Shown here: positions 6,958 through 10,296 of the stretch, in pieces | How the letters are laid out: each line of letters begins with the position of its first letter | How positions within the stretch are numbered: the stretch's first letter is position 1 | Origin: Pirellulales bacterium | Lineage (GTDB): Bacteria; Planctomycetota; Planctomycetia; Pirellulales; JAICIG01 | Reading direction: 5' to 3' | Assembly (NCBI GenBank): GCA_036379555.1 | Contig: DASVGM010000002.1 | Location: 1-38,676, forward strand | DNA: 38,676 nucleotides | Notes under the pieces: model-generated | The model's input: only the letters and a program-made list of their open reading frames with translations | Told to the model about the DNA's origin: nothing | Databases searched by the model: none | Position numbers and translations under genes: made by a program

Positions 6958-7260
6958 CAGAAACCCCTGTTTGCTTCGCTGTGACGAGATCGCCTGATCG
7001 GCGAGGGATAGGGGAATGATACCCGCTTTCGCGTGGGGCCGCAATACCGCCTTTTTTGGAGTACGGTATTTCGTTTTCCTTTACCTTCTGTCCGCGCGTG
7101 GGCGCCGGCACTCCGTTAAAAAGGCGACAAGGATTTATTGACGCGCATGGAAAGGTCACGCATAATCCGGCGAGCCGCGAGCTTTGGTTGACTCGCCCTG
7201 ACCTCTTTTTTTAACCCCCACCGCGCCCACCGCGGTTTTTTGGTTCGTACTTGTTTGGCA

Positions 7261-8112
7261 ATGATCGCGATTGAACAAGTGTGGCGCGGAGCGAAGCTGG
7301 ACTTGGATGGCGCGGCCGACCGGCTGTATGAACGCCCTCCCACGGTCGGAGCGGTGGTGGGAACCTACGCGGCGGTTCCGTACGTCCACTTGCAGTTGGA
7401 GGCGCGGCGGCGATTCTTTCCGCACGTGCCAATGCTCGTGCATGACGATGGCAGCCATGTTCGCGATGCGCTCTGCGACCTGTGCGACCGCTATGGCGCC
7501 GATTTCGAGAGCAATTCGCGGCGGCTGCCGCATCATTTGGGCGACCTAAGTGCGTTCGTCGGCGGACTGAAGTGGGCCCAGTGCCGGCAGGTTGACCTTT
7601 TGCTCAAAGTGTCGCGGAGGTGGGTGTTCCTTCTCGACTGGACCGAAGACCTGCGCGGCCTGGCCGTGGAAAGCCAGCACGCCACGTTTTCCAATTACAC
7701 ACGGAGCTATGCGTTTGGTTTCCGAACCGAGTGCGTGGCCCTCGCCGTGCGGCTTTGGGCGGTGCCGGCGTTCCTGCGCGACGCCATTGAGAAGATCAAC
7801 GCGGGCCGCCATGTGTTTGTAGAGAATTACATTCACCTGCACGCCATCCGCCTGCACGAACACGCCTGCGCGGAGGCGTCGCGTTGGACGAGCGAGCATC
7901 CGGTTCCCGATGAGCGGCGCGGCTACGCCGCGTGGCCCTTGATGGGCACCGATCGCATTGAACGCAATCCCTCGGGCAAATATTTGTGGCACGATTCCCA
8001 TTCGCCGCGGCGCTATGCCGATCAGGCCGCCGCCTGGGGGTTGCCCTACGGTGAGGCCGACTTCGCCGATCCCAATCAGGGCGCCGGCCTGGGGCCGGAG
8101 AATGCCCGGTAA
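7261..8112 (+). CDS. Hypothetical protein, possibly a divergent GT-A-fold (nucleotide-sugar transferase-like) protein
   Basis: Track ORF 7240..8112; first ATG at 7261 (MIAIEQVW...). Amino-acid composition is balanced, unlike the Arg/Gly/Pro-rich antisense ORF 7546..8286. VGAVVGTYAAVPY...PMLVHDDGS resembles the N-terminal strand/DDGS region of GT2 enzymes, but there is no clear DxD. The functional call is weak. Confidence 0.55.
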   Translation: MIAIEQVWRGAKLDLDGAADRLYERPPTVGAVVGTYAAVPYVHLQLEARRRFFPHVPMLVHDDGSHVRDALCDLCDRYGADFESNSRRLPHHLGDLSAFVGGLKWAQCRQVDLLLKVSRRWVFLLDWTEDLRGLAVESQHATFSNYTRSYAFGFRTECVALAVRLWAVPAFLRDAIEKINAGRHVFVENYIHLHAIRLHEHACAEASRWTSEHPVPDERRGYAAWPLMGTDRIERNPSGKYLWHDSHSPRRYADQAAAWGLPYGEADFADPNQGAGLGPENAR

Positions 8113-8132
8113 TAAGACCGACTCAATGAAAC

Positions 8133-9632
8133 ATGAATTACCCCCGCCAACCCGTTTATTCATCAGAAACGCCGCGAGTGACGCCGCGCGCTCAGCCACC
8201 ACGCGATGAAAAGCAATCGCATGGGCCACCGCGGCCGGCGGGCGTTGCGCCGACGGCCAATGCGGCGCCGCGAGCGATTCTTCCAAAGCTGCGCGACATC
8301 CGCACGCTCAATCTCATTTATCATATCTGGCCGGTCGCCACCAACGATCTTTGGCGTTGGAACATTACGCGGCTTTTGCCGCGTATCAACGTCTTCAACG
8401 GAAAGCGCATCATCGCCATCGCCACCGATGAAGAAACCGTTTCAGCCGATGAAGTCGTGTCTGAACTTGAGGGACACAACATCACGTTCATCACGATGGC
8501 CAACGACGCGCGCCTGCGCGAAGGAACGACCTTTTTGCCGCTGCTTGACGCCGTGCATACGGTTGATCCAAGCGAGGCCACGTTTTACGGCCATGCCAAG
8601 GGCGTGTCGCGCGCCAAGTCGGTGCATGCGGTCGAAAAAGCGTGGGCCGAGTGCATGTATCACCATTGTCTTGACTTTCCTGACCGCGCGAAGGACGCGC
8701 TGGCGCGCAAGGCGATGTACGGCGTTTCGTTTCCGATCGAAAAAGCCTGGATCTATCCGGGCACGTTCTGGTGGTTTCACAACGCCAGCCTGTTCGCCCG
8801 CGACGACTGGCGAACGCTTGAGAACCACGTCACGCGTGAAGGCGTCGGCTGGTCGGTCGAAGCTTTTCCCAACCGCTTTTTCTCCGACGATTGCGAGCGC
8901 GTTTATCCGCCCGAACTGGTCTATCCGCCGGATCGCAAATTCGGTCTTTACGACGATCGCATCTGGAATGCCGACGTGCGCGTTCCCTCGCTCAACGAGC
9001 GGGCGAAATGGCGCTGGGGGCATGCCATCGAACGCGAATGGCTGACTTGGGGCAAGATTCTTTCGGGCGACTCGATCGTGGAAGCGGTGCGACGGCACGC
9101 AACGCTTGAGGGCGCGCGAATTATGGAAATCGGCCCGGGCTATGGACGTTTCTTTGAAGCGCTCAAGAACCAACGGCTCGGTTTCGGGAGTTATACGGGC
9201 GTGGATCTTTCGCCTCAGCGCTCGCGCGAATTGCGGCGGAGCCATCCTGAAGGGCGATTCGTCTGGGGCGACATCGAGAGCTTTCGCGACATTGAGCCGC
9301 TGGGGCCGTGCGATTTGATCGTGGCCACGTTGGTTTTCAAGCGGCTTTGCCCGACGTTTCAATTGGCGGCGACCAATTGCCGCTGGCTGCTGGCGCCGGG
9401 AGGCAAGCTGATTTTCGACGTGCCCGAAACGGGCGTCGATTGGCCGGCGACCGAAGAGGCGCAAACCGGCTCGTTTGAAAAAGGTTGGGGCTACGGGGCG
9501 TTTTCAAAATCGTATCGCCGCGAAGAAGCGCGGGAGTTGCTGGAGGCGGCGGGCTTCGCCGACGTGCGCTTCGATTCGATCGTGCATGACGGCGACAAAC
9601 GCCGTCTGTTGGTGATCGCCACGCGAGGATGA
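8133..9632 (+). CDS. Two-domain protein: N-terminal domain of unknown function plus C-terminal class I SAM-dependent methyltransferase
   Basis: ATG at 8133. C-terminal third (about 9030-9632) has IMEIGPGYGRFF (GxGxG motif I), DLIVATLVFKRL and GGKLIFDVPETGVDWPA. It is clearly paralogous to the next gene. The N-terminal domain (LNLIYHIWPV...FYGHAKGVSRA...YPGTFWWFHN) is not recognised. Confidence 0.75.
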   Translation: MNYPRQPVYSSETPRVTPRAQPPRDEKQSHGPPRPAGVAPTANAAPRAILPKLRDIRTLNLIYHIWPVATNDLWRWNITRLLPRINVFNGKRIIAIATDEETVSADEVVSELEGHNITFITMANDARLREGTTFLPLLDAVHTVDPSEATFYGHAKGVSRAKSVHAVEKAWAECMYHHCLDFPDRAKDALARKAMYGVSFPIEKAWIYPGTFWWFHNASLFARDDWRTLENHVTREGVGWSVEAFPNRFFSDDCERVYPPELVYPPDRKFGLYDDRIWNADVRVPSLNERAKWRWGHAIEREWLTWGKILSGDSIVEAVRRHATLEGARIMEIGPGYGRFFEALKNQRLGFGSYTGVDLSPQRSRELRRSHPEGRFVWGDIESFRDIEPLGPCDLIVATLVFKRLCPTFQLAATNCRWLLAPGGKLIFDVPETGVDWPATEEAQTGSFEKGWGYGAFSKSYRREEARELLEAAGFADVRFDSIVHDGDKRRLLVIATRG

Positions 9633-9636
9633 ACCC

Positions 9637-10296
9637 ATGAGCTTGGACGACATCGCCACCGAGCGCTGGCGCACACACACCAGCGCCGAGGGGCTAACCT
9701 GGGGCATGGTGCTGGACGGCGCGGCGCTCGTCGAGGCAATTGAAAAGCACGCTCGCCTGGCCGGGGTGGCGGTACTGGAAATCGGCCCCGGCTACGGCCG
9801 GCTTTTGCGGTCGCTCGTCGATTCATCCGTCCCGTTCGCGAGCTATGCCGCGCTCGACATATCGGAGCATTGGGTGCGCGAACTTACGAAGGAGTTTCAC
9901 AGCCACCGCAACATTTCGTTTATGTGCGCGCCGGTTACCGAGGCGAACACTAAATTCGCAGGCCGGCAGTTCGACTTGATTGTTTCGATGTTGACTTGGA
10001 AACACTTCCATCCTGATTTCGCCGCGGCCGCGCGCGCTTGTCGTTCGCTGCTCGCCACGGACGGCCGTTTGATATTCGACCTGCCTGAGACAGATGTCGC
10101 CTGGCCCGCGCCGACGAATGTGGCGAGCGGAACCTTTGAGGAAACCGGGGCCTTCACGCGCACCTACACGCGGCATGAGGTGCAATCGTTGCTCGGCGAG
10201 GCCGGCTTGACCGTCGTGATGTTTGATGAAATCGCGCATGCGCCTGATAAGCGGCGTTTGCTCGTCGTCGCGCGGCGGGCCGCCGGCCCGTCTTGA
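9637..10296 (+). CDS. Class I SAM-dependent methyltransferase (paralog of the C-terminal domain of the upstream gene)
   Basis: ATG lies 4 nt after the upstream stop. VLEIGPGYGRLL, DLIVSMLTWKHF, GRLIFDLPETDVAWPA and DKRRLLVVARR align with the upstream protein. The last codons (AAGPS) and the stop lie inside a palindromic repeat. Confidence 0.8.
   Translation: MSLDDIATERWRTHTSAEGLTWGMVLDGAALVEAIEKHARLAGVAVLEIGPGYGRLLRSLVDSSVPFASYAALDISEHWVRELTKEFHSHRNISFMCAPVTEANTKFAGRQFDLIVSMLTWKHFHPDFAAAARACRSLLATDGRLIFDLPETDVAWPAPTNVASGTFEETGAFTRTYTRHEVQSLLGEAGLTVVMFDEIAHAPDKRRLLVVARRAAGPS

Follow-up and report, generated by a model that had tools for sequence, protein, structure and literature searches.

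A three-gene operon of predicted glycan enzymes beside a glycosyltransferase-Rhs gene of a Pirellulales bacterium: a possible exchangeable tailoring cassette

Introduction

Why do three tightly packed genes lie divergently beside a large Rhs gene with an N-terminal glycosyltransferase (GT) domain, and do their products act on the Rhs protein? This question was raised by a DNA stretch of 38,676 nucleotides from a Pirellulales bacterium (contig DASVGM010000002.1 of assembly GCA_036379555.1), which was analyzed over its whole length and is called the window here. The three genes, named g1, g2 and g3, look like one operon of enzymes that build and tailor a glycan. We tentatively favor the reading that g1-g2-g3 is a swappable cassette that would extend and methylate an O-glycan on the Rhs protein. 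Gene neighborhoods are the whole basis of this reading, and on them it is the most likely one. A previous sequence-only reading had suggested that the GT-Rhs gene and the three divergent genes are one functional module with a shared promoter space, and its claims were followed up in the course of the analysis.

Results

GT27-like domain and poly-serine loops of the Rhs protein

The Rhs open reading frame (ORF) starts at ATG 6957 (MRASIIIATF...) on the minus strand and spans at least 2319 aa, with the left end of the window inside the ORF; the C-terminal toxin and immunity genes are located outside the window. Residue 1 coincides in the alignment with the called starts of homologues, which confirms this start. 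The protein is composed of an N-terminal GT27-like domain, a Pro-rich linker, a YD/Rhs shell with five poly-Ser insertions, the Rhs core, and a C-terminal variable region. The core model TIGR03696 matched aa 2113-2176 with 42 bits against a cut-off of 32.5, and other Rhs proteins were 44-78% identical over 1200-1900 aa, which places the protein in the YD-repeat/Rhs class. Neither a ricin-type lectin domain nor a signal peptide was found in the Rhs protein, in which the GT domain is followed by the Pro-rich linker and then by the Rhs shell.

The GT domain was matched by Pfam at aa 4-212, to GT2 (4e-23) and to Glyco_transf_7C (5.7e-6). When this domain was compared with the PDB by phmmer, the top 16 matches were 15 animal polypeptide N-acetylgalactosaminyltransferases (ppGalNAc-transferases) and one chain named 'Glycosyl transferase'. 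The best match had E = 1.2e-24 over aa 3-245. The GT27 catalytic motifs were found in register with those of GalNAc-T10, with FLDAHT in the Rhs protein aligned to FLDSHCE (the DXH motif), WGAEDIDL to WGGEQYEI, and IGHRFR to VGHIYR. Enzymes of the GT27 type start O-glycans on Ser and Thr residues of proteins.

The five poly-Ser tracts have lengths of 16, 9, 13, 10, and 7 residues and are inserted into turns that connect YD repeats. All six Ser codons are mixed within them; the tracts were therefore selected at the protein level and did not arise by slippage or as a simple DNA repeat. Among 16 homologues of about 44% identity, seven carry poly-Ser at the position of residue 1556, and in most of the remainder the loop at this site is mixed and rich in D, G, P, T, and S. 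At residues 682 and 881, poly-Ser was present in a few homologues of similar identity (about 44%).

Nine other GT-Rhs fusion proteins were found. In two additional proteins (P0156 and P0157), the same GT2 plus Glyco_transf_7C N-domain, about 60% identical, is joined to Peptidase_S8 subtilases. Thus, the fused GT27-like domain is not specific to Rhs proteins. The region between the GT domain and the shell (aa ~330-420; 5700-5970, minus strand) is a long Pro/Ala/Gln-rich linker followed by the Cys-rich sequence KECCECNQTF.

Fold and family of g1

The g1 protein has 283 aa. An in-frame TTG is present at 7240, upstream of its ATG, and the homologues start at the ATG instead. The Pfam search of g1 gave no family at E <= 0.1, so the GT2 profile was not matched, and the NCBIfam search gave NodC alone, at E = 0.059 and with 12 bits against a cut-off of 550. 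The proposal that g1 is glycosyltransferase-like was right at the fold level. The AlphaFold model, based on an alignment of 32 homologues, showed a GT-A fold with a predicted local distance difference test (pLDDT) value of 92.7. The 50 best PDB matches listed by Foldseek were almost all GT-A glycosyltransferases, together with one cytidylyltransferase of the same fold. SpsA, TarP, COLGALT1, chondroitin polymerase (K4CP), and GT8 members were among them, with E ~1e-6, template modeling (TM) scores of 0.33-0.45, and identities of 10-17%.

The invariant residues of the g1 family are E47, R51, D62-D63-x-S65, G94-D95, K116-x-S118-R119-R120, R155-x-E157, and E188. H-D62-D63-G-S65 is invariant after strand 58-62 (strand 2) and corresponds to the Asp-rich nucleotide-binding feature of GT-A enzymes. 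The family comprises 669 representative clusters at E <= 1e-3 among 1.84 billion. Its members were found in Planctomycetota, Verrucomicrobiota, Armatimonadota, a Bacteroidetes metagenome-assembled genome, and Pseudomonas, and they are often fused to Methyltransf_24.

Domains of g2 and g3

The g2 protein (499 aa) had been described as an unrecognized N-domain fused to a class I methyltransferase, and g3 (219 aa) as a paralogue of this methyltransferase; both descriptions were borne out. The C-terminal part of g2 (aa ~300-499) is a class I S-adenosylmethionine (SAM) methyltransferase with a Pfam match at aa ~324-478, and Pfam gave no match for aa 1-300. Methyltransf_23, 25, 11, and 12 matched the g2 C-domain and g3 with 32-56 bits against cut-offs of 21-30, and both contain the SAM motif LEIGPGYG. 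g3 is 43% identical to g2 aa 286-499 (E = 9e-53) and is missing from the nearest relative (locus L001). When the g2 model was searched with Foldseek, the methyltransferase half alone was matched (E = 4e-11), to CouO, NovO, SgvM, and DnrK. The curated sugar O-methyltransferase model TIGR04371 (NanM-like) gave only 19.5 and 16.5 bits for g2 and g3 against a cut-off of 44. Membership in a defense system was rejected, as PADLOC matched g3 only, to mad2, at the level of a generic methyltransferase.

The first 50 residues of g2 are disordered in the model. The N-domain that follows (aa ~55-285, nt ~8295-8987) was predicted with confidence as an alpha/beta fold with a beta-alpha-beta array (pLDDT 85-97), and the predicted order of these elements resembles that of GT-A. 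It contains YHxWP, FYGHAKG, and GTFWWF, which are invariant across the family as YHxWP, FYxHAKG, and GTFWWF. The structure prediction therefore gave a confident fold for the domain but no structural neighbor, because all 50 listed PDB matches to the whole-protein model fall in the methyltransferase half and none of them covers the N-domain. A profile of the N-domain against the PDB gave a best E of 0.56 (a selectin), which is meaningless; no Pfam match was obtained at E <= 10, and profile-profile comparison with g1 gave a probability of 0.2%.

At least 190 confirmed metagenome matches belong to the g2 N-domain family. Among 47 full-length members, the domain is fused to Glyco_trans_1_2 (15), Methyltransf_24 (12), GT2 (8), class I methyltransferases (4), and Sulfotransfer_3 (2), and GT25 is a further partner. 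Since the fusion partners are mostly glycan enzymes, the N-domain is a module of multi-domain glycan enzymes, and it is most likely a transferase itself.

Gene neighborhoods of g1 and g2

The genes g1, g2, and g3 lie on the same strand with gaps of 20 nt (g1-g2) and 4 nt (g2-g3), as expected of an operon, and the g1-g2 order is kept in the closest relative (loci L001/L051). The coordinates, the 303-bp spacing between Rhs and g1, and the packing of the three plus-strand genes were all as previously described. The identical g1 protein, together with a divergent Rhs gene and g2, was found on three independent short metagenome contigs of at most 7 kb each, and the region is contained in soil and sludge runs. 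In four soil runs labeled transcriptomic, the contig depth was flat and DNA-like (~9.6 across g1-g3, the intergenic region, and the 5' end of Rhs), with no strand information.

The main conserved partner of g1 is a GT9-like protein of ~310 aa (Pfam Glyco_transf_9, 1e-6 to 5e-5), here called gP, which adjoins or is fused to g1 in ~22 of 32 loci. The g1-gP pair is often accompanied by an HldE-like ADP-heptose enzyme (E = 1e-126), an rfaE-domain-II-like gene, and CmcI-like genes related to rhamnosyl O-methyltransferases. The gP sequence matched neither TibC nor any other chain in the PDB, and membership of gP among the bacterial autotransporter heptosyltransferases (BAHT) is therefore not claimed.

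Either g1 or gP adjoins an Rhs gene in four layouts, which cover at least two planctomycete orders. In the window, g1 is divergent from Rhs. The closest relative, with ~80% DNA identity, has only Rhs and g1-g2 in common with the window, and its gene order is Rhs, a weak-Imm32 gene, a 383-aa gene, CmcI-like, rfaE-II-like, GT9-like, g1, and g2. The edge of the L001 locus falls inside its Rhs gene. If a single inversion separated the two gene orders, the missing genes would lie to the left of the window. In a Schlesneria locus (L024), gP is located 72 nt upstream of an Rhs gene whose product begins with 170 Ser-rich residues, and a g1 fusion protein is encoded divergently. A GT8-like assignment for the N-domain of this 586-aa fusion protein was rejected, with no support from Pfam or the PDB. 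The fourth layout (L044) has g1 fused to Methyltransf_24, an HldE-like gene, and gP, followed by RHS proteins.

Proteins with a weakly g2N-like domain and a methyltransferase were found immediately to ~1 kb downstream of g1 in three other lineages (L009, L014, and L043), which supports g1 and g2 as working partners.

Two other neighborhoods were also recorded. In Pseudomonas (L042/L022, 2537-10017), g1 and gP follow two large unannotated proteins of 1154 and 1338 aa with no Pfam match, which may be another acceptor for the g1-gP pair; a phage-type integrase adjoins this locus and an autotransporter is near. In L004 (~21.5 kb), a g2 orthologue stands amid HipA_2, DUF3037, and MmeI-fragment genes, with Methyltransf_24 and a 2-oxoglutarate-Fe(II) oxygenase 6 kb off, in surroundings that are island-like and defense-flavored.

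Tailoring genes at other GT-Rhs loci

Tailoring genes of other kinds were found within 10 kb at all six further GT-Rhs loci. Three of these loci (L039, L048, and L050) have a Sulfotransfer_3 gene with a conserved, unannotated partner of ~430 aa, and the set is divergent from Rhs in two of the three. Methyltransf_24 is near the GT-Rhs gene in L039 and L048, and GT1 or GT2 genes are near it in L038, L041, and L049. L038 comes from Planctomicrobium sp. SH527 and L050 from Singulisphaera acidiphila, both of which are cultured.

The sulfotransferase cassettes are located at 1-3018 (minus) in L039, at 6056-9046 (minus) in L050, and at 19845-21651 in L048. In two loci, the cassette holds the same divergent position as g1-g2-g3, and a Methyltransf_24-related protein occurs in two loci. 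Small NifU_N/IscU-like genes are found beside GT-Rhs genes (L038 21984-22364; L039 9163-9606 and 18219-18614; L050 17322-17696). Genes of the same type head g1 glycan clusters (L043 585-962; L044 1753-2283), and none is present in the window.

Layout of the locus and its surroundings

The features of the locus are listed in Table 1.

Table 1. Coordinates of the GT-Rhs gene, the divergent operon, and the adjoining features in the window
Feature	Coordinates	Strand	Basis or remark
GT-Rhs gene, 5' part	1..6957	minus	Translation, Pfam, TIGR03696, homologues
Rhs GT27-like catalytic domain, aa 1-330	5968..6957	minus	phmmer against the PDB, motif alignment
Rhs poly-Ser tract 1 (16 Ser)	5452..5499	minus	Candidate O-glycosylation site
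Further poly-Ser tracts	4885-4911 (9), 4618-4656 (13), 4285-4314 (10), 2269-2289 (7)	minus	Candidate O-glycosylation sites
Divergent intergenic region	6958..7260		Promoter-like site and hairpin
g1, GT-A-fold protein of an unannotated family	7261..8112 (ATG to stop)	plus	Model, Foldseek, alignment
g2, unannotated alpha/beta domain and class I SAM methyltransferase	8133..9632	plus	Pfam, model
g3, stand-alone class I SAM methyltransferase	9637..10296	plus	Pfam, 43% identity to the g2 C-domain
g4, convergent multi-pass membrane protein of 561 aa	10367..12052	minus	Right-hand edge of the module

In the divergent intergenic region, a sigma-70-like site (TTGACG-17-CATAAT) is present at 7138-7166 on the plus strand; one such site against 0.8 expected is not significant. 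A terminator-like GC hairpin followed by TTTTTT at 7220-7236 (plus), 24 nt 5' of the g1 ATG in the presumed 5' leader, was also not above chance, and it could be an attenuator or a chance structure. A structured RNA was rejected for the region, with one Rfam match only (snoRNA sR1, 16.7 bits against a gathering score of 45).

The g4 gene had no family match in the Pfam and NCBIfam searches. A homologue with 27% identity lies ~4 kb from the g2 orthologue in L052, and it is doubtful that g4 belongs to the module. Short hairpin stretches flank g4 at 10274-10374 and 12490-12553 (tccgagttttcgga; agacttcgtaagaagtct and agaactctcacgagttct). They reached 50-90 times the depth of the surrounding contig in the four soil runs, many contigs stop within them, and some contigs join 10326 to 12523 and skip g4. 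These flanking stretches look like a high-copy repeat of the repetitive extragenic palindrome (REP) or miniature inverted-repeat transposable element (MITE) type.

The rest of the window (12-38 kb) contains housekeeping or unrelated genes, namely those for an AIR-synthase-related protein, a methyltransferase, a sulfatase, Lgt, PanC, HPPK, a CoA-transferase, a MoxR-vWA bpX3 protein, and RtcA. Therefore, the unit ends near 10.3-12 kb. The bpX3 protein (22948-25803, minus; 951 aa) has the N-terminal bpX3 domain of MoxR-vWA-beta-propeller ternary systems and is unrelated to the operon.

Discussion

A possible route for glycosylation of the Rhs protein

We suggest the following route. The GT27-like domain would put the first sugar on serines of its own protein, most plausibly in the poly-Ser loops. 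The g1 protein, and perhaps also the g2 N-domain, would then add a further sugar, and the methyltransferases of g2 and g3 would methylate the glycan and thereby cap or decorate it. In this view, planctomycete GT-Rhs genes would have exchangeable tailoring cassettes beside them, with the operon as one and the sulfotransferase set, the gP and g1 pair, and the extra GT1 or GT2 genes as the others. From gene structure, folds, motifs, family relations and fusions, and neighborhood patterns, we infer the Rhs protein as the acceptor, the order of the steps, the sugars involved, and a catalytic activity of g1 and of the g2 N-domain.

Evidence against the route and the alternatives

Several observations weigh against this route. 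Rhs was found within 10 kb in only 4 of ~32 distinct g1 loci, two of which, the window and L001, are close relatives. Compared with a guessed background of ~3% for Rhs within 10 kb of a random planctomycete gene, the 3-4 of ~12 planctomycete loci are an excess, which depends on this guess. Of 80 g2 N-domain loci, 79 have neither g1 nor Rhs, and g2 orthologues (73% identical in L004 and 69% in L052) stand alone in two other genomes. Conversely, six GT-Rhs loci (L038, L039, L041, L048, L049, and L050) have no g1, g2 N-domain, g3, or gP within 10 kb. No gP homologue was found in the 38.7-kb window, where the best tblastn match had E = 0.002 over 22 aa.

The arrangement itself is also local. In the closest relative, Rhs and g1-g2 share one strand, with Rhs 4.6 kb upstream, so that the divergent juxtaposition is lineage-specific. 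The g1 start codon is the exact point at which similarity to this relative begins; the divergent promoter region is thus a lineage-specific junction, and this edge points to a rearrangement breakpoint.

Two points concern the proteins. At the position of the DxD motif, which was taken from predicted secondary structure and not from a superposition, strand 113-118 (strand 4) of g1 ends in the invariant K-x-S-R-R, and g1 has no DxD and no acidic pair there. We infer from its sequence that g1 is a predicted transferase that would be metal-independent or otherwise atypical. The Rhs protein, whose glycosylation is putative, has no signal peptide.

The claim of one functional module was therefore kept in part. 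It holds for the functional class, as an operon of glycan enzymes with interchangeable cassettes, but not as a fixed four-gene module with the GT-Rhs gene, since Rhs was lacking at about 28 of the 32 g1 loci and at 79 of the 80 g2 N-domain loci, and the trio was lacking at the six other GT-Rhs loci. The shared divergent promoter space did not hold beyond the lineage, and only one Pirellulales lineage has the exact trio.

The same observations make it quite plausible that the operon is a fragment of an envelope-glycan pathway, for a heptose-containing, O-methylated polysaccharide or an LPS-like (lipopolysaccharide-like) glycolipid, which is unrelated to Rhs and came to adjoin it by rearrangement at an Rhs-associated variable region. 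The partnership of g1 with gP in ~22 of 32 loci, the frequent clustering of g1 with HldE-like, CmcI-like, GT4, and large GT2-tetratricopeptide-repeat (TPR) genes with no Rhs near, and the stand-alone occurrence of g2 all fit it. So do the breakpoint at the g1 start and the g2 N-domain family, which is mostly found in multi-domain glycosyl- and methyltransferase proteins typical of polysaccharide synthesis. However, the operon in the window is without GT9-like, heptose, and GT4 genes, and no flippase, polymerase, or ABC exporter was found within 38 kb. Furthermore, Rhs recurs beside g1 or gP in four layouts from at least two planctomycete orders, and tailoring genes were found at every GT-Rhs locus examined. 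The envelope-glycan reading agrees with the context in which both families mostly occur, but it explains neither why the further genes of such a pathway are all missing from the window nor why tailoring genes recur beside Rhs.

A role of the operon in altering the surface glycan of the producer itself, by receptor masking or immunity against a kin-delivered Rhs toxin, is improbable. The neighborhood evidence would suit it equally, and an arms race for a receptor at the cell surface would be in keeping with the variety of tailoring cassettes next to polymorphic toxins. However, it has no specific support. The candidate immunity genes in relatives lie 3' of Rhs, such as a 199-aa gene in L001 with a sub-threshold Imm32 match (E = 7.5e-4, 19.8 against 27 bits), and the GT27-like domain and poly-Ser loops of the Rhs protein point to the toxin as the acceptor.

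Glycosylation and methylation of a natural product is likewise improbable, and slightly more so. In its favor, the g2 methyltransferase found its best structural matches in the natural-product C- and O-methyltransferases CouO, NovO, SgvM, and DnrK, and a TubC_N docking domain occurs in four members of the g2 N-domain family. Against it, class I methyltransferase folds match such enzymes generically, g1 and the g2 N-domain are overwhelmingly fused to glycan enzymes, and no polyketide synthase, nonribosomal peptide synthetase, ribosomally synthesized and post-translationally modified peptide, or other core biosynthetic gene is present in the window.

Significance of the proposed cassettes

The cassette reading can be extended to a wider, rather doubtful proposal, namely that Rhs toxins of Planctomycetota are mucin-like O-glycoproteins. 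Here, a GT27-like domain, fused or encoded just upstream, would prime the poly-Ser loops, and neighboring cassettes would diversify the coat by methylation, sulfation, or heptosylation. If so, a glycan layer of polymorphism would be added to a toxin family known only for polymorphism at the protein level, and g1 and the g2 N-domain would be two new families of glycan enzymes. Were the cassette reading correct, the Rhs protein would be a testable, self-glycosylating bacterial toxin container that uses an enzyme of the GT27-like type, which is known for the most part from the synthesis of mucins in animals, and the neighboring cassettes would vary its glycan chemistry. It would also give a working context to the unannotated g1 family (~670 clusters) and the g2 N-domain (at least 190 metagenome matches). 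If the envelope-glycan alternative is true instead, the operon would be an ordinary envelope-glycan fragment beside a rearrangement hotspot.

Dedicated glycosylation islands beside Ser-rich adhesins are already known, both for the serine-rich repeat proteins (SRRPs) and for autotransporters. In the literature on Rhs/YD-repeat proteins and O-glycosylation or poly-serine, including that on Planctomycetes, no paper linking them was found. In the polymorphic-toxin survey of Zhang et al. (2012), glycosyltransferases were listed only as C-terminal toxin domains.

Comparison with known systems

The systems closest in their working are the SRRP glycosylation islands and the BAHT-autotransporter pairs; by the analysis, the locus would be a member of neither. 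The SRRP islands of Gram-positive bacteria comprise the adhesins GspB, Fap1, and PsrP, each with GtfA/GtfB and further glycosyltransferases. As in these islands, the gene of a very Ser-rich protein stands here beside enzymes that would start and extend an O-glycan, and the accessory sets vary, as they do between strains for SRRPs. The presumed acceptor, in contrast, is an Rhs toxin with short poly-Ser loops rather than a long serine-rich repeat adhesin, initiation would fall to a GT27-like domain within the acceptor protein itself rather than to a GT4 GtfA/GtfB pair, and methyltransferases are present. No GtfA/GtfB (GT4) pair and no SecA2/SecY2 were found among the ORFs of the window, and the locus was not assigned to the SRRP islands.

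The BAHT enzymes are the heptosyltransferases TibC and Aah, with the substrates TibA and AIDA-I (PMC4358343). As in the tibC-tibA pair, gP lies directly upstream of a Ser-rich Rhs gene in the relatives L024 and L044, with an HldE-like ADP-heptose gene near. Unlike the BAHT pairs, the window has no GT9-like gene, and both the heptosylation and the acceptor are putative.

The N-domain of the Rhs protein is like the animal GT27 enzymes, the initiators of mucin-type O-glycosylation, in that it was aligned over the whole catalytic domain (E = 1e-24). It differs from them in being bacterial, in having no ricin-type lectin domain and no signal peptide, and in its fusion to the presumed acceptor.

Methyltransferases of glycan pathways include the CmcI-family rhamnosyl O-methyltransferases and the WbdD-type terminators. 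Unlike these, g2 and g3 fall within the generic Methyltransf_11/12/23/25 group and reached no curated sugar-methyltransferase model. They share with the CmcI and WbdD types a SAM methyltransferase that is fused or adjacent to GT-type domains, and a CmcI-like gene occurs together with g1 in L001 and L043.

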